In this document: positions 1-9,481 of the stretch, in pieces
Layout: every line of letters begins with the position of its first letter
Position numbering within the stretch: the stretch's first letter is position 1
Source: a virus
Lineage: Duplodnaviria > Heunggongvirae > Uroviricota > Caudoviricetes
Reading direction: 5' to 3' (one strand)
IMG/VR virus record: IMGVR_UViG_2711768076_000006
Span: 1-9,481 of that record
Length of the DNA: 9,481 nt
The notes under the pieces: generated by a model
Told to the model about the DNA's origin: nothing
What the model saw: the letters and a program-made list of their open reading frames with translations, nothing else
Databases searched by the model: none
Program-made: the position numbers and the translations under genes

Positions 1-676
1 GCAGCGGCGCAAGATTTTTTGTGCGCTGCTTCAGTATGCTGGTGGCGGTCTGCTCTCCCGGTACGATGTCGCTTTCGCGGTACACCGAGCGGATTTTTTC
101 CGCACGCAATCCCAGAGAACGACGTAATACTGCCTCCGGCAATACGTCCGCTACCTGATTGCAGACCGCCCACCAGGATAATTCAGCCAGCGATAACTCC
201 CGCTCCTGTGTACCGTTTATTGCGTGGCGGATGACGTCAATCATCCAGGATGTCAGGTTTTGTTGAGCAAGTTGCCCGAGTGATTCTGAAGTCTGGTCGC
301 GTAACTGATTATCACAGTGCCAGCACAATACCATCGCGCCGGTACCGTAACGATGTATGACGGTTTCACTGTGGTGGTAGTCACCATGAGGCCACTGGCA
401 GGATTTAACATGGCGTAACAGCCAGTCAGACAATGCGCCAGCGCCGCCAGCAGCACGAATCACCCGCTCATCGCTGAAAAATGGCAGTAATGATTTATCT
501 TCCGCGAGCGGCTGGCGCACGGCAGGAACAGCTCCTGACGGCAGACCGCGCATGCTTTTCGGTTCCGGCTCCACCAGCACCCGGGGATTATGAAATACCT
601 GCATGGATTCACGGCCCGGCTTAAGGACCACCAGCCCGAGTTCCGGTACCAGAACAGGTCGAAGTAATACCCGCAC
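1..676 (-). CDS. DUF968/YdfU-like prophage protein, N-terminal part only (C-terminus lies beyond the window start)
   Basis: Hand translation of the - strand gives one frame with no stop from 679 down to position 1 (about 226 codons); the ORF track omits it because it has no stop inside the window. Possible starts are GTG at 676 (GGAGG 4 nt upstream) or ATG at 604. Contains a CWHCDNQ and His-rich stretch. Sits next to hok and rem-like as in Qin (hokD-rem-ydfU). Confidence 0.55.
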   Translation of the reverse strand, partial: MRVLLRPVLVPELGLVVLKPGRESMQVFHNPRVLVEPEPKSMRGLPSGAVPAVRQPLAEDKSLLPFFSDERVIRAAGGAGALSDWLLRHVKSCQWPHGDYHHSETVIHRYGTGAMVLCWHCDNQLRDQTSESLGQLAQQNLTSWMIDVIRHAINGTQERELSLAELSWWAVCNQVADVLPEAVLRRSLGLRAEKIRSVYRESDIVPGEQTATSILKQRTKNLAPL

Positions 677-677
677 G

Positions 678-956
678 TTACCTCCAGATACGCTGCTGGA
701 ATGTGCGAGACGGACGCGGTGGGCGTTCAGAGTAAGGAAGCCTGACGGAGATTATCCAGTGACGATAATCGAGGCTGAGGGCTTTCTTAATCTCGTATCC
801 GTGTCTGCGGTAGCACTGAATTAGCCACTCGGCCTGTTCTTCAGTGCATGGGTCATGCTGGAACCAGTCAGATTTGAAAGTGCGGGAACGCCGCCCGTGC
901 CTGCTGGCAAAGACGGCAGAATCATCAGAATTGTGTAATTTGGTATCGTGCGCCAT
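678..956 (-). CDS. Rem-like small prophage protein (92 aa, function unknown)
   Basis: Trimmed from track ORF 678-1085. The 5' extension of that ORF covers the hok terminator hairpin at 1027-1055, so the ATG at 956 (MAHDTKL...) is the likely start. Its TAA stop is 1 nt from the GTG of the next gene (TAAcGTG). Position matches rem in Qin. Confidence 0.5.
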   Translation of the reverse strand: MAHDTKLHNSDDSAVFASRHGRRSRTFKSDWFQHDPCTEEQAEWLIQCYRRHGYEIKKALSLDYRHWIISVRLPYSERPPRPSRTFQQRIWR

Positions 957-1026
957 CGGTTGTCTCTGCTGGCGCAGCAGGTGCCAGTTGTTCAGGCTGG
1001 CGTGCGAATTGTAAACCAGAATGCCA

Positions 1027-1055
1027 GGAAAAAACAAAACCCGCCGAAGCGGGTT
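1027..1055 (-). terminator. Rho-independent terminator downstream of hok
   Basis: On the - strand, hairpin AACCCGC-TTCG-GCGGGTT followed by TTGTTTTTTCC, about 70 nt after the hok stop. Confidence 0.6.
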
Positions 1056-1123
1056 AAGTGCGGGTGCGTTGAGGATGCCTGACACATCAGAGGTGGCGAG
1101 GGATTTCTCCCCCGCCTGGTCTC

Positions 1124-1279
1124 TTACTCCTCAGGTTCGTAAGCTGTGAAGACAGCGACCTCCGTCTGGCCGGTTCGGATTCGTACCTCGCAGAGGTCTT
1201 TCCTCGTTACCAGTGCCGTCACTATGACGGTTAAACAGATGACGATCAGGGCGATTAACATCGCCTTTTGCTGCTTCAT
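1124..1279 (-). CDS. hokD: Hok/Gef-family type I toxin, 51 aa membrane peptide
   Basis: MKQQKAMLIALIVICLTVIVTALVTRKDLCEVRIRTGQTEVAVFTAYEPEE is a canonical Hok sequence and matches HokD/RelF as I recall it. AAGGAG lies 9 nt upstream of the ATG at 1279. Confidence 0.85.
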   Translation of the reverse strand: MKQQKAMLIALIVICLTVIVTALVTRKDLCEVRIRTGQTEVAVFTAYEPEE

Positions 1280-1336
1280 AGCCTGCTTCTCCTTGACCTT
1301 TCGGTCCGTAAGAGGCAATCTATATGTGACGAGCAT
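1124..1336 (-). CDS. mok: Mok reading frame (in-frame N-terminal extension of hok that couples hok translation)
   Basis: ATG at 1336 in frame with hok adds MLVTYRLPLTDRKVKEKQA, which resembles the N-terminus of chromosomal Mok peptides (mokC MLNTCRVPLTDRKVKEKRA from memory). Confidence 0.55.
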   Translation of the reverse strand: MLVTYRLPLTDRKVKEKQAMKQQKAMLIALIVICLTVIVTALVTRKDLCEVRIRTGQTEVAVFTAYEPEE

Positions 1337-1378
1337 ATAGGGGCCTCACTTCGATTTATAGTCGGGTGGGGCTTTTAT
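1315..1378 (+). ncRNA. sok: Putative Sok-type antisense RNA opposite the mok translation start
   Basis: Inference from hok/sok architecture. + strand TTGACC at 1293-1298 is a possible -35, but no good -10 hexamer follows at 16-19 bp spacing. Imperfect hairpin GCCTCAC (1343-1349) / GTGGGGC (1365-1371) is followed by TTTTAT. Boundaries are approximate. Confidence 0.3.
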
Positions 1379-1471
1379 CTATCTGCCGTTGGTGTTCATG
1401 CCCGAGGCAGATAGCCTCAAGCACCCGCAGCAATTCTACTTAACTCTGCCGTTACAGCAAACCGTTTTCGC

Positions 1472-1495
1472 CCGATATGGGAATTCCCATATCGG
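1472..1495. repeat. 24-bp perfect palindrome CCGATATGGGAATTCCCATATCGG, function unknown
   Basis: The sequence equals its own reverse complement. It lies between the solute-binding-protein gene 3' end and the hok leader, with no U-run on either strand, so it is not a canonical terminator. Confidence 0.9.
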
Positions 1496-1560
1496 AATGA
1501 ATTCAGTTCACCTGGCGAGGCTTAGCGTACAATTTTTTCCGTTTTGTGAGCTGCCCCTAC

Positions 1561-1612
1561 ATGCCGCTGGCGCGGCATCCGGAAAAAGAATCCACGTCCT
1601 GAAGGACGTGGA
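1561..1612 (-). terminator. Rho-independent terminator region for the solute-binding-protein gene
   Basis: On the - strand, hairpin TCCACGTCC-TTCA-GGACGTGGA (1591-1612) followed by TTCTTTTTCC, then a second hairpin ATGCCGC-GCCA-GCGGCAT (1561-1578); starts 6 nt after the stop at 1618. Confidence 0.55.
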
Positions 1613-1617
1613 GGATG

Positions 1618-2376
1618 TCAAGTGCCTTTCCTGGTCCAGCCATATTTTTTGAATGCAGGCGCCGCTTCATCGGTTTGTAGCCATTCTGCAAATCGACGGG
1701 TTTCATCATTTGCATCCTGACGTACTGTAATGTTCATATCACGCCATATCACGTAGTCTGGCGCTATTTCCACGACATCACCAATTTCTGGATTACTGGC
1801 TGCCCAGTCAGCCCAGGTTATCCAGACATCTGCTCCAGGCTGATTCTCAAGAGCCTTACGTGCAGTTCCGCTATTGGGCGCATATAAAATAATATTTTTT
1901 CGGATTGCGGCGACAGTTTCTATATTCCCTTTACGTCCGGCAATATCTTCCCAGACGCCAGTGCCTGATGTATTACTGGTACCACCACCATCATTAACAA
2001 TTACGCCAATCCCGGGTCTGGTCAGGTCGTCAATACTCCGGATATTTTTAGGATTACCTTTCTTTACCAGTAAAATACTTTTTCGCAGATAAAGAGGCTG
2101 AATATCTTTTTCACTGAAGCTGTCTTTATGGTCCCGAATGATAGCCAGAGCAGATTGTTCTGATGCGCCAAACAAGATATCTGCATTTTTTTTGGCATCT
2201 TCATTCCATTTGTTCTGTGGACCGTAATGAACGTTCACTATAACACCTGTTTTTTCGGCATAAAGTTTGGCTGCTTCAAGCAAGGCTGTATGCGGGCCAC
2301 CAGGACCATACAGATTGATATCAGCATAAGCAGCAGAAGACAGGAATATTAAAAAACCTGCCATTATGTTCCTCAT
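1618..2376 (-). CDS. Secreted periplasmic solute-binding protein, ModA/WtpA-like, with no cognate transporter genes in the window
   Basis: 252 aa. N-terminal signal peptide MRNIMAGFLIFLSSAAYA with an AYA-D cleavage site. Mature N-terminus INLYGPGG...AEKTGVIVNV and C-terminus ...FKKYGWTRKG follow the ModA-type binding-protein pattern as I recall it. AAGGAG 7 nt upstream of the ATG. A 260-bp AT-rich region lies upstream. Confidence 0.85.
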   Translation of the reverse strand: MRNIMAGFLIFLSSAAYADINLYGPGGPHTALLEAAKLYAEKTGVIVNVHYGPQNKWNEDAKKNADILFGASEQSALAIIRDHKDSFSEKDIQPLYLRKSILLVKKGNPKNIRSIDDLTRPGIGVIVNDGGGTSNTSGTGVWEDIAGRKGNIETVAAIRKNIILYAPNSGTARKALENQPGADVWITWADWAASNPEIGDVVEIAPDYVIWRDMNITVRQDANDETRRFAEWLQTDEAAPAFKKYGWTRKGT

Positions 2377-2540
2377 AAAAAACTCCTTTTATTGGTTATC
2401 ATGAAATAAAATTATAAACACCACAAATAATATATATTATATCCAGATAAACTTATCCGACTTTACCTCGTGCATAGCTTGTTATTTAAAGTTAACAAAA
2501 TAAGGAAAATTATACGCATATTGAAGAGTATAAACCTTAC

Positions 2541-2568
2541 ATGTTGATTACATTTTTGTAATCAACAT
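2541..2568. promoter_or_regulatory. 12-bp perfect inverted repeat (ATGTTGATTACA-TTTT-TGTAATCAACAT), candidate operator upstream of the solute-binding-protein gene
   Basis: Seen directly in the sequence, about 170 bp upstream of the ATG at 2376 in the AT-rich region. A TATAAT hexamer lies between the repeat and the gene on the - strand (near 2505-2510). Confidence 0.4.
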
Positions 2569-2794
2569 CCTGTTTGGAATAGCCAGCCTTTAATGGATAA
2601 CTATTTCTGACAATGCAATGAGTATAATCAAGTCCATCTTCCACTGAGAATTAGAGGCGGCATGCTTTTTCCGGCTCTTGCCGGATATCCGTAATTGTCC
2701 ATAATCTGCAGATTTATACCTTCTGCATGACCTGTCAGCGAAAATTTGTCCGGTGTTTCTACGGGAATGACATCAAAAGTTACACGCACTCGCG

Positions 2795-3106
2795 TTACCG
2801 TGTAGACCTACTTTCCTGCACTTGCAAGATCACAGTGGTGTAACCGTAACAGGAATTTATTCTCTGGACCGGCAGTAAATCCCTGAGTGGCGTGGTTCCC
2901 ATATCAATTTCCCGCCAGGCAGCCTCCATTGCCAGCGTACAGGCTGGAGCCATGACCTGCCCTTTAAATCTGGCCCGACCATCCCACCGGACGTGTTCTT
3001 CTCCCCTGAACTTAGGTACAGTCATCTCCAGTGGCACAAAAGTGTCAGCGCCATGATTTTTGACCGTTATCGCGCTACGGATATTTTGTTGACTGGTGAA
3101 AATCAC
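2795..3106 (-). CDS. Hypothetical protein (103 aa), weak call, possibly a gene remnant
   Basis: Track ORF that starts with GTG and has no clear RBS; no family recognised. It is in the same frame as the DUF1627-like gene but separated from it by at least three stop codons. Confidence 0.2.
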   Translation of the reverse strand: MIFTSQQNIRSAITVKNHGADTFVPLEMTVPKFRGEEHVRWDGRARFKGQVMAPACTLAMEAAWREIDMGTTPLRDLLPVQRINSCYGYTTVILQVQESRSTR

Positions 3107-3235
3107 CCCGCAGAATCAGGCTTATTCCCTTAACCCGGGATTTCATCCTGACCGCCGCCTCACTACGACCAATCAGACTGCCGATGCATTTTACCTTCAT
3201 TGTTAGTATCATGATTTCAGGCCTGCACCATCCGC

Positions 3236-4033
3236 TCATTGCCCGGACTTCCGACAAATCCCGGCAACCATATCCCGGTGCTTGTTCAACTCCCGCAGCG
3301 CGGCGCAGACTCGCTCCCACTTCTGGACATGATTCTTCGCCCTACGCAGTTCGCGATTTGCCATATGCAGCGATGGCAAAATCAAATCATCTTCTCGCGT
3401 TGCAGTAAACGATGGCAGCGACTGCACAATGTCCGCCACAGTTTCTGTTTTAATATCTTCCTGTGTTGCATCTTTCTGTACCGGTAACGCAACACCGGCT
3501 GGCTGAGGAAAGGCTTTACCATCGGTTTCCGTTACCGATACGGCTTTCGGCTTTGCTGGTAAATTATCGTCCGGCATGCAGTAACGGAATTTACCGTTCT
3601 GATTTACGCGAATCAGACGCCCTTTGCTGATTGCCATTGCCAGCGTTGAAGCTACTTTGCGTGATGTGGTACCGAACAACGTAGCCAGTTCATCCGCCGT
3701 TTGTGGTCCGCGTTGTTCAATCGTCGCGGTTAAATCGCACTCTGAGATTTTCGCTACTGTTGCTGTGGTGGTTTCTTCCGGCAGCTCTGCCTGCGCTGGC
3801 TGTTCCTGCTGAACGTTGTTATCAGCCACACGCCAGGTGTACGCGCTTTTATCAACAAAACCAGCCTTTTTCAGTTCCCATAGTTCGTTAAGCACTTCTT
3901 CACGACTGACATCAAGTCGCGCCGCAAGTTCTATGGATGTGGCTTTTCCCATTGCTTTCAGTGCGTCAAAAACAGTCTCCATTAAATTTTTTTCCTGGTA
4001 AAAATTACTTTGTGATTCCTGGCTGGACGACAT
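3236..4033 (-). CDS. DUF1627-like prophage protein with an N-terminal winged-helix-like domain and an acidic linker
   Basis: 265 aa ORF directly downstream of the DnaC-like gene, the usual position in Rac-type prophages (ydaW position). The ATG at 4033 overlaps the DnaC-like 3' end by 29 nt; the alternative ATG at 3982 ([13 protein letters not shown]...) is also possible. Confidence 0.75.
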
Positions 4034-4751
4034 TCGGGCGCCAGCTTTCCCAGTTAAAACTCACCCAGCGTCCGCCGTTCATGGTCATGCGATCCATAAT
4101 CCGCTCACCGAGCAATGTTTTCATGGCCTCATAGTTCAGGTTTGTCAGCATTCCCACGCTACGCATCGACGCTGTCCGTCGATCAATAATCTGGTGCAGT
4201 ACTACCTGCTCGTTTTTCGTCTCGCGCTGAATGCCAATTTCATCAAGAACCAGCAGATCCACTTCGCACAGTTCCCGCAATAATTTTTCGCCTGACTGCC
4301 CGTCGTCATAGCTGGCATGCAGGGCACTCATAACATCAGCCACGGTAACCACAATCACTGCCTGACCGTCTTTCAGCAGGCGATTTCCGATAGCTGCCGC
4401 TAAATGGTTCTTCCCGGTACCAGGTTTTCCGCTGAACGCAAAATTTGTACACCCGGTCATCAGTTCATCGGCGATGGATTTCGCCTGGCTTAACGCGTAT
4501 CGCTGGCCGTCGTTCTGCACCTGGTAATTTGCAAACGAGCATTTACGATGCAACGGCTGGATGCCTGAGCGATTCAGAATTTTTTCCACCCGCAACTGAC
4601 GATTCAGGCGGTTGATCTCCTCGCTACGTTTTCGCCCTTCTGCAAGCTGCCACTCTCGCCACTCGTCCACTGTCCGGCACGGCGCGGTTACATGCTGCGG
4701 AGTCAGCTTACGGATACGTTCAAGAACACCGCCTGTCGCAATATTTTTCAC
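4005..4751 (-). CDS. DnaC-like replicative helicase loader (AAA+ ATPase), YdaV-like
   Basis: 248 aa with Walker [16 protein letters not shown] and Walker [12 protein letters not shown] start with GGGGG 9 nt upstream; begins 7 nt after the O-like stop. Confidence 0.9.
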
Positions 4752-4757
4752 AGTTCG

Positions 4758-5723
4758 TTACCCCCTAAACCCCGGCGGAATTTCGGTGTCTGGTTCAGAA
4801 ATATGATTCACACAACGCTGTACAGGTGAACGCCCCAGGCGGATGACCAGTTCGTCCCATTTTTCGCGGAGCTTTGACGGGCTCATGATGTTTTTTACCC
4901 AGAATGGATCCCGCTGTACCCGCCCAAACATTTCGCAAATTTGTCTGTGAGTTCTGCCATCCAGCATCCGCATTGTGCGCACATCATTGGCCCATGCGGT
5001 CCAGTTTGGTTCTTTCGGTCGCGAGATCTCGCCATCATCGCTGGCAGCCTGCTCGTAAAGACTCACAATTCGTCCCCAGATCCACTGTGCGCACGCCAAA
5101 TCTTCCTGACTTCCCCACTGGCGTTTTTTCGCACTGAACACAACCGCGTCAGGGTGTCGGGTTAAAAAATCCTGTTCAGCCGTCTGCGGGTCCGGTTGCG
5201 AAGCTTCCGGACGAGAAGTGTTTTTATTCTCTGTAGTAATCTCTGTTGTATTCTCTGTAAGATCATCAGGCCATTTTGACCCGATGACATTGGGTCGTTT
5301 TGAACCAATGGAGCGTGCCATTTTGACCTCTTCCATCGTGTCATTTTGACCTGATGGAGCGGTGCATTTTGACCTGATGGATTCGCTCACTTTGCCACCA
5401 TCTAAAAGCTCACTCTCGTAATTAATCGTGTAAAAATTAGTCATATCACGCTTTGATTTGTTGAGCTTTTCACAACGCAAAAGCCCCAGCGTTTTCAGAC
5501 TTGCAAATGCGCGTTTTAACGTTGACTCTGACCAGAACGGGAACTGTTCCAGCCATTGTTCTGTTGTGTTATAAATCCAGCGAACACCATCACATTCCAT
5601 GCCGGAACCGGTATCTCTCAACCAGTAATGCAGCTGCTGCAACACGATGGCTTCGTTCAGACCAATTTTCATCGCCAGCTGCGTGTTTATAACCAGCGGG
5701 CGTTCAGCAAAAAGGAGCTTCAT
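4758..5723 (-). CDS. Phage replication initiator (replisome organizer, lambda O-like / YdaU-like)
   Basis: 321 aa. Lies immediately upstream of the DnaC-like gene, and the origin iterons are inside its coding sequence, as with lambda O. Confidence 0.88.
   Translation of the reverse strand: MKLLFAERPLVINTQLAMKIGLNEAIVLQQLHYWLRDTGSGMECDGVRWIYNTTEQWLEQFPFWSESTLKRAFASLKTLGLLRCEKLNKSKRDMTNFYTINYESELLDGGKVSESIRSKCTAPSGQNDTMEEVKMARSIGSKRPNVIGSKWPDDLTENTTEITTENKNTSRPEASQPDPQTAEQDFLTRHPDAVVFSAKKRQWGSQEDLACAQWIWGRIVSLYEQAASDDGEISRPKEPNWTAWANDVRTMRMLDGRTHRQICEMFGRVQRDPFWVKNIMSPSKLREKWDELVIRLGRSPVQRCVNHISEPDTEIPPGFRG
5227..5396. repeat. Probable prophage replication origin: six iterons at 23-bp periodicity plus an adjacent AT-rich block with three 12-bp repeats
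   Basis: CATTTTGACC-type repeats start at 5272, 5296, 5319, 5342, 5365 and 5388 (the second and last are degenerate). TCTCTGT repeats at 5228, 5240 and 5252. All lie inside the O-like gene. Confidence 0.7.
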
Positions 5724-5744
5724 CCCCTCCCCCAGAACACGTTA

Positions 5745-6170
5745 TCAATGCGCCACCACGGCATTTCCCGCCGGACCACCACGATTCATCTGATTGAAAC
5801 CAGCAATTACCACCGCGACAAGTTCATCAGCGTCTCTCACCAGTCGTTCATGCGTATCCACCAGTTCCCGAAAATAATCGGAACTGTGGCTGCGCATCCA
5901 GGCCACCAGCGGAGGTGGCATTGCCTTTTCGATCGCTGGTAACAAAGCCTGAATTTTTTTAACCGCATCAGGGGTGTCTTTCTCCACCCAGCGGAAAATT
6001 TTCTGAGTATTGCGAGCCAGGGCTTCCGGATGGCTGTCGTCATACAGTTCCGGGAATGTCATACCCAGCTCAAAATAAGCCCGGGTTATTTCAGCTGCCG
6101 GAACTTTTTCACCGTCCGGACGCGCCCAGGCATTCATCGCCATGCGGATGTGTTCATGCTTGATTTTCAT
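5745..6170 (-). CDS. ydaT: YdaT-like protein (toxic partner of the RacR-controlled ydaS-ydaT operon)
   Basis: 141 aa. AAGAGG 10 nt upstream of the ATG; overlaps the ydaS-like 3' end by 17 nt. Position and size match Rac ydaT (about 140 aa). Confidence 0.8.
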   Translation of the reverse strand: MKIKHEHIRMAMNAWARPDGEKVPAAEITRAYFELGMTFPELYDDSHPEALARNTQKIFRWVEKDTPDAVKKIQALLPAIEKAMPPPLVAWMRSHSSDYFRELVDTHERLVRDADELVAVVIAGFNQMNRGGPAGNAVVAH

Positions 6171-6477
6171 GAATCATTTGCCTCTTGATGCTTCGGGTAT
6201 GATCGTTTTTGTCATTTGGTTGCTTCATCGACATATTCTGCGAATAACATGACGAACGTCGTAAGTATGACCAGTCAACATCAGGACGAAGTTCTTCACA
6301 CAGGACTCCACCTTTTGTTGCTCGTTCAATCGCTGGACATCTCTCGGCAGGCAACCGACGTACACCTTTGATCCATTGATTTACGCTTGGAGGCGATACC
6401 CCTAAAAGTCTGGCCATTGCTGATTGCCCACCAACAACAGCACAAGCTCGTTTGAATGAATAGTTCTCTTTTTTCAT
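6154..6477 (-). CDS. ydaS: YdaS-like Cro/HTH-type DNA-binding protein
   Basis: Start taken at ATG 6477 (MKKENYSFKRACAVVGGQSAMARLLGVSPPSVNQWIKG...), with GGAG 9 nt upstream. Divergent from the repressor, with operators in the shared intergenic region. Confidence 0.8.
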   Translation of the reverse strand: MKKENYSFKRACAVVGGQSAMARLLGVSPPSVNQWIKGVRRLPAERCPAIERATKGGVLCEELRPDVDWSYLRRSSCYSQNMSMKQPNDKNDHTRSIKRQMIHENQA

Positions 6478-6499
6478 CGAATGAACTCCAAAAAACACA

Positions 6500-6572
6500 C
6501 AATGATATTAGGCGGCGCCTAATATCATTGTCAATAGGCTATGCCTAACAACCAAGAGGTAGGGATTGCCTA
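6500..6572. promoter_or_regulatory. Right-operator-like region: three TAGGC-N3-GCCTA palindromes in the racR/ydaS divergent promoter region
   Basis: Cores at 6509-6521 (inside a 14+3+14 bp perfect palindrome, 6500-6530), 6535-6547, and 6560-6572 (TAGGG variant). Centre-to-centre spacing is 26 and 25 bp. Confidence 0.6.
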
Positions 6573-6601
6573 ATGCAATGCACATAGGAGACTATTAAGC
6601 A

Positions 6602-7078
6602 ATGCTTAGTGGTAAAGACTTAGGCCGAGCGATAGAGCAGGCCATTAATAAAAAAATTGCATCAGGAGCCGTCAAATCAAAGGCGGAGATCGCACGCCAT
6701 TTCAAAGTCCAACCACCATCAATCCATGACTGGATTAAGAAAGGTTCGATAAGTAAAGATAAACTTCCAGAACTATGGCGTTTCTTTTCTGATGTGGTTG
6801 GTCCAGAGCATTGGGGGCTTAACGAATACCCCATACCAACCCCTTCCTGCTCAGATTCAAAAAGAGAACTTTTAGACATAAACAGCCTTTATCAAGCCGC
6901 TTCTGATGAAAAAAGAGCAATTGTAGCCTTCCTCTTATCTGGAAATGCTGCGGAGCCTGGTTGGGTTGATTATGACGTTCGCGCCTACATTACTGCAATG
7001 GAAATGAAGGTAAGTAACTATCTGAAAAATCAAGAATCAGAACGGAAAAGCCAGAACATCACCAAAACGGGAACTTAA
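6602..7078 (+). CDS. racR: Prophage repressor, RacR-like
   Basis: 158 aa (MLSGKDLGRAIEQAINKK...), the same length as Rac RacR. AGGAG upstream. Flanked on both sides by the same operator palindrome family. Confidence 0.82.
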   Translation: MLSGKDLGRAIEQAINKKIASGAVKSKAEIARHFKVQPPSIHDWIKKGSISKDKLPELWRFFSDVVGPEHWGLNEYPIPTPSCSDSKRELLDINSLYQAASDEKRAIVAFLLSGNAAEPGWVDYDVRAYITAMEMKVSNYLKNQESERKSQNITKTGT

Positions 7079-7175
7079 ACTTATATGGTCCGACGGGAAG
7101 CACCTAGATCCCGTTATTTAGCTCCCATTACCTCTTCCACATACCATCGCCTATTAGGTTGTGCGCAAAAGGCAT

Positions 7176-7213
7176 TAGGCATAGCCTATTGACAAGCAAT
7201 TAGGCATTACCTA
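7176..7213. promoter_or_regulatory. Left-operator-like region: two TAGGC-N3-(G/A)CCTA sites downstream of racR, upstream of the + strand early operon
   Basis: Cores at 7176-7188 and 7201-7213, 25 bp apart. The 21-mer at 7175-7195 is the exact reverse complement of 6528-6548. Confidence 0.5.
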
Positions 7214-7398
7214 TAGTTTTCTCATACCAACCCACCCCGCCCCACAGAATGCAGGGCAATACTTTGAGTTACCAGGCAGTGGTCAGGGGGTAAGTAGCCA
7301 GCCCGAGGCGTAAGAACATGACGGCAGGGTTCAACTTTAATAACTATGCAGCAGGTTTTTGTTCCGCTACCCCGGCGTTAAGGGGAAATGAGGTCAGC

Positions 7399-7554
7399 AT
7401 GGATACTATCGATCTTGGCAACAACGAATCTCTGGTGTACGGCGTGTTTCCCAACCAGGACGGTACGTTCACCGCGATGACGTATACCAAAAGCAAAACG
7501 TTTAAAACCGAAAATGGTGCCCGTCGCTGGCTGGAAAGATACTCAGGTGAGTGA
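7399..7554 (+). CDS. YdfA/YdaF-family small prophage protein (51 aa)
   Basis: ATG at 7399 with GAGG 5 nt upstream (MDTIDLGNNESLVYGVFPNQDG...). The alternative ATG at 7318 would give 78 aa. Confidence 0.6.
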   Translation: MDTIDLGNNESLVYGVFPNQDGTFTAMTYTKSKTFKTENGARRWLERYSGE

Positions 7555-7555
7555 T

Positions 7556-8131
7556 ATGGATTTCAACACGATCATGGGAAAGGCTTACGAAGAATACTTC
7601 GAAGGCCTTGCCGAAGGCGAAGAAGCTCTCAGCTTCAGTGAGTTTAAACAGGCACTCAGAATAAGAATGTGCTCTCACAATGACGCGGAGCACAAATATG
7701 AGAAGCAAAATCAGACCGCAGAAAATTTTGTTCTGGAACCCGGAGAAACGCTTTTCAAAATTCCCGTTACGTGCCCCATTTGCGGTTTTACATCAGAAGA
7801 ACTTGACGACTCCTGTAACAATCAGGAAACAACCAAGTATGTCGAAGATGATACCGAGTGCGCACGAAGAACGATTATATCCACGAGTCCAAACTCCAGG
7901 ACCAATAAATCTCACTTTGAGAGGGTGATTAATCCACTCCCCCAAACCAATAAAAAAGATGCCGGAGGACAAAAAACCCAATGGAACAACGGGATATCTG
8001 TCAAAAAAAGACGTTCCATTAAAGACAAACAACGCAGCGCCAACAACTGTAAGCACTTTATACCAGTAATCAATTTTCATGTTCTTAAGCGGATTTATTG
8101 GTGGTTGCGACATTGCTTAATGAATCCTTAA
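7556..8131 (+). CDS. Small early-operon protein whose frame runs on for 191 codons; only the N-terminal ~90 aa look protein-like
   Basis: ATG at 7556 is 1 nt after the upstream TGA, with GGTGAG upstream. Beyond about 7800 the frame is rich in AGA, AGG, ATA and CGA codons and lies antisense to a membrane-protein ORF. Confidence 0.3.
   Translation: MDFNTIMGKAYEEYFEGLAEGEEALSFSEFKQALRIRMCSHNDAEHKYEKQNQTAENFVLEPGETLFKIPVTCPICGFTSEELDDSCNNQETTKYVEDDTECARRTIISTSPNSRTNKSHFERVINPLPQTNKKDAGGQKTQWNNGISVKKRRSIKDKQRSANNCKHFIPVINFHVLKRIYWWLRHCLMNP
7793..8113 (-). CDS. Putative small inner-membrane protein in the sieB position (superinfection-exclusion-like)
   Basis: 106 aa with three hydrophobic segments (YKVLTVVGAALFVF, VVPLGFLSSGIFFIGLG, ALGIIFDILGCFLIVTGVV). 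ATG at 8113 with AAGGA 11 nt upstream; alternative ATG at 8080. Convergent with the early operon, as sieB is in lambda and Rac. Confidence 0.4.
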   Translation of the reverse strand: MSQPPINPLKNMKIDYWYKVLTVVGAALFVFNGTSFFDRYPVVPLGFLSSGIFFIGLGEWINHPLKVRFIGPGVWTRGYNRSSCALGIIFDILGCFLIVTGVVKFF

Positions 8132-8390
8132 AACTGTGGTGATTTTAAGGATACCACCTCGCCTGACGTTGTTAAAAGCAGGCACACAACACGAAAGCGC
8201 ACGGCGAAGTTCGTCTCACTGTACGGTGTCGTTAAATTTAATTCGACCGTGCGCTTCCGGTTGTGGCAACCCGCGAAATGGCGCGGCGGTAAGTATGGCG
8301 GGGTTATTCCTTCCCCGTTGAGGACACCGGGTTGTCAGGTTGACCATACGCTTAAGTGACAACTCCGCTGCAACGCCCTCTGTTATCAAT

Positions 8391-8448
8391 TTTCTGGTGA
8401 CTTTTGGCGGTATCAGTTCTACTCCGTGACTGCTCTGCCGCCCTTTTT
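8391..8448 (+). ncRNA. dicF: DicF small RNA (antisense inhibitor of ftsZ translation) with its 3' terminator
   Basis: TTTCTGGTGACTTTTGGCGGTATCAGTTCTACTCCGTGACTGCTCTGCCGCCC plus a T-run closely matches the K-12 DicF sequence as I recall it. It sits immediately upstream of dicB as in Qin. Confidence 0.7.
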
Positions 8449-8617
8449 AAAGTGAATTTTGTGATGTGGTGAATGCGGCTAAGCGCACGCGGAACAGTTA
8501 AAACCAAAAACAGTGTTATGGGTGGATTCTCTGTATCCGGCGTTAATTGTTAACTGGTTAACGTCACCTGGAGGCACCAGGCACCGCATCACAAAATTCA
8601 TTGTTGAGGACGCGATA

Positions 8618-8806
8618 ATGGAAACGTTATTACCAAACGTTAATACGTCTGAAGGTTGTTTTGAAATTGGTGTCACTATCAGTAACCCTGTATTTACTGA
8701 AGATGCCATTAACAAGAGAAAACACGAACGGGAGTTATTAAATAAAATATGCATTCTTTCAATGCTGGCCCGTTTACGTCCGACACAAAAAGGATGCTGG
8801 CAATGA
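8618..8806 (+). CDS. dicB: Cell division inhibitor DicB (62 aa)
   Basis: METLLPNVNTSEGCFEIGVTISNPVFTEDAINKRK... matches DicB from memory. GAGGA upstream of the ATG at 8618. Confidence 0.85.
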   Translation: METLLPNVNTSEGCFEIGVTISNPVFTEDAINKRKHERELLNKICILSMLARLRPTQKGCWQ

Positions 8807-8994
8807 ATACAGCATTTGCACTTGTTCTGACAGTTTTTCTTGTTTCCGGAGAACCAGTTGATATTGCAGTCAGTGTTCACAGGACAATGCAGGAGTGTGT
8901 GACTGCAGCAACCGAACAGAAAATTCCCGGTAACTGTTACCCGGTCGATAAAGTTATTCACCTGGATAATAACGAAATCCCGGCAGGTCTTTAA
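8803..8994 (+). CDS. ydfD: YdfD-like small protein with N-terminal hydrophobic segment (63 aa)
   Basis: ATG at 8803 overlaps the dicB stop (ATGA). MNTAFALVLTVFLVSGEPVDIAVSVHRT... AAAGGA about 10 nt upstream. Confidence 0.8.
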   Translation: MNTAFALVLTVFLVSGEPVDIAVSVHRTMQECVTAATEQKIPGNCYPVDKVIHLDNNEIPAGL

Positions 8995-9086
8995 AACAGT
9001 TCCGTAATAAACATCCGATTTCATTCTTATATGCCAGCAATGGCAGGGATTTGTTCACCCTTAAATCTGTAATGAGGTAAAACAAA

Positions 9087-9481
9087 ATGAGTAAAGTCTT
9101 TATTTGCGCCGCCATTCCGGACGAACAGGCAATAAAGGAAGAAGGTGCAGTCGCTGTAGCTACTGCCATTGAAGCCGGTGATGAACGTCGCGCCCGCGCA
9201 AAATTTCACTGGCAATTCCTGGAACATTATCCGGCTGCTCAGGACTGCGCTTATAAATTTCTTGTCTGCGAGGATAAACCCGGTATACCCCGCCCTGCCC
9301 TCGATTCCTGGGATGCTGAATATATGCAGGAAAACCGCTGGGATGAGGCGTCTGCTTCCTTTGTCCCGGTTGAGACTGAATCAGATCCGATGAACGTCAC
9401 TTTTGACAAGCTGGCCCCTGAAGTACAGAACGCTGTCATGGTTAAGTTCGACACATGTGAAAACATCACCGTTGATATGGT
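9087..9481 (+). CDS. ydfE: YdfE-like protein, N-terminal part only (continues past the window end)
   Basis: Hand-translated open frame from ATG 9087 (MSKVFICAAIPDEQAIKEEGAVAVATAIEAGDERR...) with no stop before the window end; TGAGGT 8 nt upstream. Absent from the ORF track because it has no stop in the window. Confidence 0.7.
   Translation, partial: MSKVFICAAIPDEQAIKEEGAVAVATAIEAGDERRARAKFHWQFLEHYPAAQDCAYKFLVCEDKPGIPRPALDSWDAEYMQENRWDEASASFVPVETESDPMNVTFDKLAPEVQNAVMVKFDTCENITVDM

Follow-up and report, generated by a model that had tools for sequence, protein, structure and literature searches.

The window analysed here, a 9,481-nucleotide (nt) stretch of viral DNA (positions 1 to 9,481 of IMG/VR record IMGVR_UViG_2711768076_000006), very likely contains the replication origin of a lambdoid Escherichia coli prophage, embedded in the linker-coding part of the prophage's own initiator gene. 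The window is 100% identical to a stretch of the chromosome of E. coli strain ESBL 15 (NZ_CP041678.1). Judged by its sequence, the element is a gene-embedded origin of the lambda type whose initiator has a non-lambda DNA-binding domain and a DnaC-like partner, and is as such an expected feature of a lambdoid prophage. The assignment is carried by the anatomy of the element, by constraint at the DNA level, by positional identity with the lambda origin (ori-lambda) and by co-variation between protein and DNA. The points above the routine are the deep conservation of a 12-bp repeat (12-mer), a one-residue/one-base co-variation and a DnaT-like tail common to unrelated initiators encoded upstream of dnaC-type genes.

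Anatomy of the probable origin and its initiator

The features of the replication module are as follows (positions are those of the window).

4758-5723, minus strand: initiator gene, 321 amino acids (aa); assigned by a phrog_391 match, BLASTP comparison with lambda O and a structure model
4005-4751, minus strand: DnaC-like helicase-loader gene (ydaV-like), directly downstream of the initiator gene; full-length NF009043 match, 503 bits
5380-5402, minus strand: degenerate sixth repeat unit, in register, GATGGTGGCAAAGTGAGCGAATC on the coding strand; left border of the repeat array
5264-5379, minus strand: five 23-24-bp repeats (iterons), supported by the repeats themselves, three-frame reading, third-position identity and residue-67 co-variation
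5225-5260, minus strand: three 12-bp repeats, AT-rich and purine-skewed; plus strand TATTCTCTGTAG / TAATCTCTGTTG / TATTCTCTGTAA, coding strand ACAGAGAATACA / ACAGAGATTACT / ACAGAGAATAAA
5190-5212, no strand assigned: palindrome GTCCGG-N11-CCGGAC, immediately after the 12-mers, with arms of 6 bp in the window
5169-5225, minus strand: synonymous-site-conserved stretch of ~55 nt (codons 167-185) containing the palindrome, third-position identity 0.85

The initiator matches phrog_391 (replication initiation O-like; E-value: 1.1e-96) from aa 18 to 321, covering profile positions 13-298 of 298, and has no Pfam match. It consists of a winged-helix-like N-terminal domain (N-domain, aa ~6-105), a linker (aa 108-174), a lambda-O-type C-terminal domain (C-domain, aa ~181-295) and a DnaT-like tail (aa 302-321). 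In an AlphaFold model based on 10 homologues, the N-domain and the C-domain are folded and the predicted local distance difference test score (pLDDT) falls to 26-28 at aa 108-174; the repeats are therefore predicted to encode a disordered linker. The first-pass annotation, made from the sequence without database searches, had called the protein an O-like initiator. This description holds for the C-terminal half only, because aa 146-293 are homologous to lambda O residues 135-270 (34% identity, E-value: 2e-27, BLASTP), whereas the N-terminal DNA-binding domain shows no BLASTP similarity to lambda O (hhalign probability 0.15%). The N-domain also has no sequence match to any PDB chain; sequence homology to lambda O, to ORF20 of Staphylococcus phage 80alpha or to any solved structure was rejected, as none was detected. 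Foldseek matches to the N-domain model are led by the N-terminal domains of staphylococcal plasmid RepA proteins and are weak (E-values 0.01-0.04). By these comparisons, the DNA-binding half of the initiator, and with it the iterons, belongs to a non-lambda family.

The first-pass annotation had counted six direct repeats every 23 bp. Repeats with a spacing of 23-24 bp are present, but there are five clear units (four exact, one with two mismatches) and one degenerate unit. On the plus strand, CATTTTGACC occurs in four exact copies, at 5272, 5319, 5342 and 5365 (~0.02 exact copies expected by chance, by our own arithmetic), and as the two-mismatch copy CGTTTTGAAC at 5296; no further copy with 0-1 mismatch is found in the whole 9.5-kb window. 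The sixth in-register unit, CACTTTGCCA at 5388, matches at 7 of 10 core positions and differs at 3. The 23-nt periodicity was recovered by Tandem Repeats Finder (TRF), as anticipated; together with a repeat search, TRF places the units at 5264-5286, 5288-5310, 5311-5333, 5334-5356 and 5357-5379 (spacing of the starts: 24, 23, 23 and 23). The coding-strand unit CATCAGGTCAAAATGACCTGATG has internal dyad symmetry and forms a palindrome around an A-tract, with the dyad-symmetric core GGTCAAAATG(A/G/C)C. The motif originally described is thus real, but the palindromic core GGTCAAAATGACC of the coding (minus) strand describes it better. The iterons span nt 322-460 of the initiator gene, and iterons and 12-mers together span nt 322-502 (aa 108-167).

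The three TCTCTGT repeats at 12-bp spacing were confirmed as exact copies at 5228, 5240 and 5252. The window contains four copies of this heptamer, a number reached in only 1 of 200 shuffles. The block is AT-rich, as had been noted: positions 5221-5261 have a GC content of 30% and form the least stable 41-bp duplex of the gene (nearest-neighbour free energy, dG, -45.6 kcal/mol; mean across the window -56.0 kcal/mol, standard deviation 4.2). Neither single strand of the block folds alone. The three 12-mers are predicted to be a DNA unwinding element (DUE). The palindrome that follows them would form a hairpin as single-stranded DNA (-8.9 kcal/mol, z -2.5). In gammaproteobacterial relatives, it has the form TTGTC(A/C)GG-TTGC-nnn-GCAA-CC(C/A)GAC, with longer arms than in the window, and one inner pair is fully compensatory (GC 15, UA 4, CG 3); the outer arms are fixed by the extraction pattern and carry no weight.

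The proposed lambdoid layout of iterons and an AT-rich region inside the initiator gene matches ori-lambda feature by feature. Within the 39-kb prophage context, the iteron and 12-mer motifs both cluster only at this site. The repeat region has no promoter-like, terminator-like or known-RNA (Rfam) match. A second AT-rich patch on the other side of the iterons (5400-5460, 25-27% GC) was considered as part of the origin and rejected, because the conserved peptide at the end of the N-domain, DMTNFYTINYE, is encoded here and phage PhiR42_1 shows drift at synonymous sites of the patch. This patch is probably a by-product of the amino-acid sequence.

Constraint on the DNA and co-variation with the initiator

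A family scan restricted to one genome per species yielded 80 loci encoding the N-domain. Retrieval used the peptide patterns NEAI[VA]LQQ and EQWLEQFP, so the conservation of these two peptides among them is by construction. The loci are distributed over Enterobacterales, Pantoea, Pseudomonas, Photobacterium, Acinetobacter, Bacillus and relatives, Staphylococcus, lactobacilli, Clostridia and Chloroflexi. Five loci carry high-identity Staphylococcus-phage-like or E. coli-like versions of the gene under other labels: L057 (Nocardioides), L060 (Micromonospora) and three metagenome-assembled genomes labelled Bacillota (L007), Veillonella (L012) and Collinsella (L079). These labels probably reflect contamination or mis-binning and are therefore unfit for host-range claims.

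In most loci, TRF finds 22-24-bp tandem repeats directly after the N-domain. The palindromic iteron cores vary by lineage (for example GGTCAAAATGACC, GGACAATCTGTCC, GGGCAAATTGCAC and GATCAAAATGATC), whereas the 2-5 copies of ACAGAGAnTAC that follow at a spacing of 11-12 bp remain constant. The density of CAGAGA is 8.9 per kb in the 12-mer zone and 0.22 per kb per strand in the flanks. Under strict criteria, 36 of 76 usable loci have both elements, 21 have 12-mers only, 8 have iterons only and 11 have neither; where both are present, the iterons precede the 12-mers in the coding direction without exception (36/36). An exhaustive HMMER search (E-value cutoff 1e-3) returned 10,185 N-domain cluster representatives at 50% identity, and tandem TExx peptides occur in 81 of the 131 top full-length matches. 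Many distant representatives (P0124-P0269), with lengths of 450-880 aa, have two stretches that match the domain and may carry tandem copies of it.

The constraint on the repeats can be separated from that on the protein. As 23 is not divisible by 3, the iteron core is translated in all three frames, as SIRSKC, SGQND, EEVKMA, SIGSKR and IGSKWP. The SIGSK-type peptide repeats of the first-pass annotation exist (SIRSKC, SIGSKRP and IGSKWP), but they stem only from the three units that share a frame; the others read SGQND and EEVKMA. Third-position identity was calculated between the gene and 18 relatives at codons with an unchanged amino acid only:

N-domain: 0.56
iterons: 0.90
12-mers: 0.99
19 codons after the 12-mers: 0.85
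C-domain: 0.63

In the 12-mers, codon choice is fixed as well. Where TExx units were defined by peptide alone (44 loci), Glu is encoded by GAG in 123 of 125 cases, compared with 388 of 880 elsewhere in the same genes, and Thr by ACA in 104 of 105, compared with 148 of 717. Some spacings are 11 bp, and 11 loci consequently read the 11/12-mer in more than one frame (two or three). Frame usage and codon choice thus indicate a constraint that acts on DNA, not on protein. In the conserved stretch at 5169-5225, between 14/14 and 19/19 third positions are kept in loci L004-L008 and L012. This stretch goes with the lambda-O-type C-domain and is also present in L003, whose iterons differ.

The iterons also co-vary with the protein. 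Residue 67 directly precedes the invariant Thr of an FPFWSxxT(L/I/V)KR motif and is the predicted start of the recognition helix. Which base stands 5' of CAA in the half-site of the iteron corresponds to its identity:

residue 67 Asp: base G, 19 of 20 loci
residue 67 Lys: base A, 9 of 9 loci
residue 67 Ser: base T, 17 of 18 loci

Each class includes distant lineages, and the loci are not independent. The iterons are candidate initiator binding sites because they combine DNA-level constraint with co-variation with the putative recognition helix; the five units in the window are predicted to bind dimers of the N-domain. The family thus constitutes a natural specificity series in which one residue tracks one base of the iteron half-site.

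Mosaic relatives delimit the unit of inheritance. A Klebsiella phage has the N-domain, iterons and 12-mers in common with the window gene and then a different C-domain. Phage vB_EcoM-720R4 has only the C-domain in common; its N-domain is of the HTH_36 type, its iterons are 15 bp long (CCGTCAAAATCTGAC) and it has no 12-mers. Because such relatives switch these parts separately, the 12-mers can be seen to follow the N-domain, independently of the C-domain and the loader; with the iterons, the two form a single inherited module that is separate from the C-domain. The Edwardsiella piscicida locus (L011) has a hybrid origin (gene nt ~550-600): after a window-family N-domain, iterons and five ACAGAGAATAC repeats comes a palindrome with exactly the loop of lambda, AATTCTGGCGAATC. 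This arrangement suggests recombination between origin types within the AT-rich/palindrome zone.

The initiator genes of the isolated phages mEp460_ev081, HannyBb and PhiR42_1 are ~92% identical to the window gene, and those of mEp460_ev081 and HannyBb are also of the same length; in PhiR42_1, five iterons and three 12-mers were read, as in the window. In PhiR42_1 (L005), mEp460_ev081 (L087) and HannyBb (L088), the initiator gene has no P-type or DnaC-type neighbour, and in mEp460_4F5 it has no loader gene next to it. The initiators of the first three keep the DnaT-like tail, and LygF/Ren-like and methyltransferase genes come next. These phages presumably use the host loader, whereas the ESBL 15 prophage brings its own. 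A natural variant of 290 aa, P0020 (L089:1380-2252), lacks exactly 93 bp, corresponding to four iteron units (2-5), with the frame kept and the degenerate first unit joined directly to the last iteron. This deletion is the expected product of unequal recombination between iterons, and the origin of P0020 is probably disabled.

Encoded by the last 20 codons of the gene (4761-4820, minus strand), the initiator tail QRCVNHISEPDTEIPPGFRG matches the final 20 residues of E. coli DnaT, and the otherwise unrelated YdaU of the Rac prophage ends with RQVNTVSLPDSAIPPGFRG. All three genes (for the initiator, YdaU and DnaT) have dnaC or a DnaC-like gene as their immediate downstream neighbour, and the tail may thus be a peptide at which the helicase loader docks. 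In the searched literature, the string PPGFRG was found only in unrelated primers and sequences. If the tail is indeed a docking peptide, it would bear on the handover from DnaT to DnaB/DnaC.

Prophage context, proposed model and alternatives

The prophage around the window adjoins rspB, is lambdoid and looks complete. Its genes include those for an integrase, an excisionase and an exonuclease, dicB, racR, the cro-like ydaS, the cII-like ydaT and a 321-aa "hypothetical protein", which is the initiator. The latter is followed by the DnaC-like ydaV, DUF1627, paa, hokD, DUF968, RusA and Q; beyond Q lie tRNAs and then lysis, terminase, portal, capsid and tail genes. The DnaC-like protein (4005-4751) is an IstB/DnaC-like AAA+ protein that is 93% identical to Rac YdaV of E. 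coli K-12. The initiator aligns end to end with its homologues, and both open reading frames (ORFs) are full length. The suggestion that the replication module is intact is plausible on this sequence evidence, because neither ORF is truncated and copies with 92% identity and the same set of repeats occur in isolated phages. One further feature of the window bears on expression of the initiator.

6505-6534, minus strand: pR-like sigma-70 promoter, TTGACA-18-TAATAT, overlapping a 33-nt palindrome

By gene order, transcription from this promoter would cross the cro-like, cII-like and initiator genes and with them the origin. The near-perfect 33-nt palindrome, ACAATGATATTAGGCGCCGCCTAATATCATTGT (6499-6534), is located between racR and the cro-like gene and is probably the operator of a RacR-type repressor.

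The model proposed for initiation is as follows; binding, unwinding and helicase loading are the steps that we infer. Transcription from the pR-like promoter would express the initiator. Dimers of its winged-helix-like N-domain would bind the five palindromic 23-bp iterons, each half-site of which reads GG-T-CA. The spacing of approximately two helical turns would let the bound dimers form a wrapped nucleoprotein complex, similar to the lambda O-some, and stress from this complex would open the three neighbouring 12-mers, the least stable block of the gene. DnaB would then be brought in by the lambda-O-type C-domain and the DnaT-like tail, via the phage DnaC-like protein or host DnaC.

A tentative extension of this model, to which less than even weight is given, is that the 12-mers are a specific, phylum-spanning unwinding element, that the N-domain has two DNA targets and that the tail recruits DnaC/DnaB. 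The ACAGAGAnTAC 11/12-mers may be more than "AT-rich DNA", as they travel with one very large N-domain family outside Pfam. The N-domain may have two targets because the iterons co-vary with residue 67 while the 12-mers stay constant whatever the C-domain or loader. By analogy with plasmid Rep proteins on DUE 13-mers, these targets may be the lineage-specific double-stranded iterons and the universal 12-mer, the latter possibly bound as a single strand. The C-terminal ...SxPDxxIPPGFRG tail of the initiator, Rac YdaU and host DnaT may in turn be a DnaC/DnaB-recruiting peptide.

Several points weigh against reading the element as a working origin of this type. The sixth iteron unit is degenerate, and the inner arms of the palindrome at 5190-5212 are non-complementary in the window. 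The structure model is of moderate quality (mean pLDDT 57), and the winged-helix or RepA-like assignment of the N-domain derives from weak Foldseek matches (E-value ~0.01). The synonymous-site and co-variation statistics draw on related, non-independent sequences, and the searched literature contains no N-domain family member with a mapped origin. Iteron arrays can also decay in prophages, as P0020 has lost four iterons.

The last point bears on a first alternative, in which the origin layout is real but is an inactive relic in the ESBL 15 prophage. Many Rac- and Qin-like prophages of E. coli are cryptic, and racR, ydaS, ydaT, ydaV, dicB and DicF are all present here; P0020 is moreover a close variant. 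However, the integrase, excisionase, Q, lysis, terminase, portal, capsid and tail genes are all in place, the initiator and DnaC-like ORFs are full length, and the iterons and 12-mers equal those of PhiR42_1 in number, with genes of the same length and ~92% identity in mEp460_ev081 and HannyBb. A relic is thus quite improbable.

A second alternative is that the iterons are initiator sites for autoregulation, copy control or exclusion by titration or handcuffing, with replication starting elsewhere in the prophage. Plasmid iterons also mediate autorepression and handcuffing, and the residue-67 co-variation speaks for binding specificity and not for initiation. This explanation is nevertheless very improbable: the 39-kb prophage has no second cluster of either motif, with the least stable 12-mer block and the palindrome the ori-lambda layout is complete and occupies the corresponding place in the gene, and the block as a whole has been kept together across phyla.

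Finally, the idea that the repeats are only a low-complexity protein linker without DNA function can draw on a disordered linker that does encode repeated peptides (SIRSKC, SIGSKRP and IGSKWP; TENT-TEIT-TENK) and on a TExx peptide widespread in the family (81 of 131 full-length representatives), but such a protein-level explanation is virtually untenable and was rejected on frame, codon-choice and synonymous-site evidence, as the 23-bp unit gives unrelated peptides in all three frames, conservation of synonymous sites is 90-99%, as against saturation in the flanking domains, the TExx codons are fixed (GAG 123/125, ACA 104/105) and 11 loci read the 11/12-mer in two or three frames.

A gene-embedded replication origin thus very likely accounts for the element. 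The initiator gene is called "hypothetical protein" by PGAP, and Pfam is without a model of its N-domain; together with the origin, it defines the replication module of widespread E. coli, Citrobacter and Salmonella prophages and of phages such as mEp460. The unwinding element is unusually regular and deeply conserved, and both the residue/base pairing and the 12-mer are directly testable. One well-defined origin with intact initiator and loader genes suggests that the element can still replicate after induction.

The remainder of the window holds further prophage genes. A hokD toxin gene with its sok antisense RNA (Rfam RF01794, 104 bits) lies at 1124-1426, and a DicF RNA (RF00039, 71.5 bits) lies upstream of dicB at 8392-8443; both are typical cargo of Qin/Rac-type prophages. 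Between the replication module and hokD, positions 1618-3106 contain paa (AcfC-family adhesin) and a frameshifted fimbrial pseudogene. The most AT-rich and least stable DNA of the window (2362-2628) flanks these two genes, and the segment looks like an inserted moron.

Comparison with known systems

In lambda, gene O contains four annotated iterons (nt 349-433, spaced 20, 24 and 23 bp), followed by an AT-rich, purine-skewed block and then the palindrome GTCAGAG...CTCTGAC. The window shares with lambda an origin that lies within the initiator gene, where the N- and C-domains meet, with the same order of elements and the same position in the gene: the iterons begin ~320-350 nt into the gene at a spacing of 20-24 bp and are dyad-symmetric with an A-rich centre (lambda TCCCTCAAAACGAGGGA, window GGTCAAAATGACC), and the AT-rich, purine-skewed block precedes a GTC...GAC palindrome. 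The palindrome at 5190-5212 is the positional counterpart of that to the right of the lambda AT-rich region, and the C-domain is homologous to lambda O. Unlike lambda, the window has five iterons (plus one degenerate unit) instead of four, an AT-rich block made of three regular 12-mers (ACAGAGAnTAC), an N-domain that is not of the Phage_rep_O type, a DnaC-like AAA+ loader in place of lambda P and an initiator with a DnaT-like tail.

The Rac prophage of K-12 (ydaU-ydaV, oriJ) has the same neighbourhood of racR, ydaS, ydaT, initiator and ydaV. Homology of the initiator to YdaU (DUF1376) was considered and rejected, as only the last 19 residues align and the proteins are otherwise unrelated; no 23-bp iteron array was found inside ydaU.

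The best structural matches to the modelled N-domain are RepA_N plasmid initiators (pSK41 and pTZ2162 RepA; 4pql, 5kbj, 4pt7). This match is weak (E-value ~0.01, TM-score ~0.5 on the target), has no sequence or Pfam counterpart and concerns plasmid, not phage, proteins. Initiators of the RepA_N type resemble the window gene in that the rep gene itself holds the iterons, between the parts for an N-terminal winged-helix domain and for a C-terminal domain.

Homologous N-domains occur in phages and prophages of PHROG 391, 9773 and 428, for example mEp460, HannyBb, PhiR42_1, Erwinia PEp14 and Pseudomonas AF and, further, Staphylococcus P954, 96 and 42E and Lactobacillus mv4. The genomic relatives examined in the N-domain family have 22-24-bp palindromic iterons followed by ACAGAGAnTAC 11/12-mers, as in the window; they differ by lineage in C-domain, helicase-loader partner and iteron core. 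In the searched literature, ACAGAGAATAC and GGTCAAAATGACC were found only in unrelated primers and sequences, and an earlier description of the 12-mer or of the family origin is possible.

The nearest experimentally supported analogue is Staphylococcus phage 80alpha. For its N-domain, no homology is detected (hhalign probability 2.4% when ORF20 is compared with the N-domain profile), its iteron and AT-rich repeat sequences differ and its C-domain is of the Phg_2220_C type. ORF20 of 80alpha nevertheless contains a gene-embedded annotated origin with iterons and an AT-rich block of short repeats, followed by the DnaC-like ORF21, and its palindrome GTCGGG-CAA-CCCGAC occupies the same place as that at 5190-5212. 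ORF20 and ORF21 are reported to be sufficient for autonomous replication, and an ORF20 deletion is not complementable in trans (PMC5499656).

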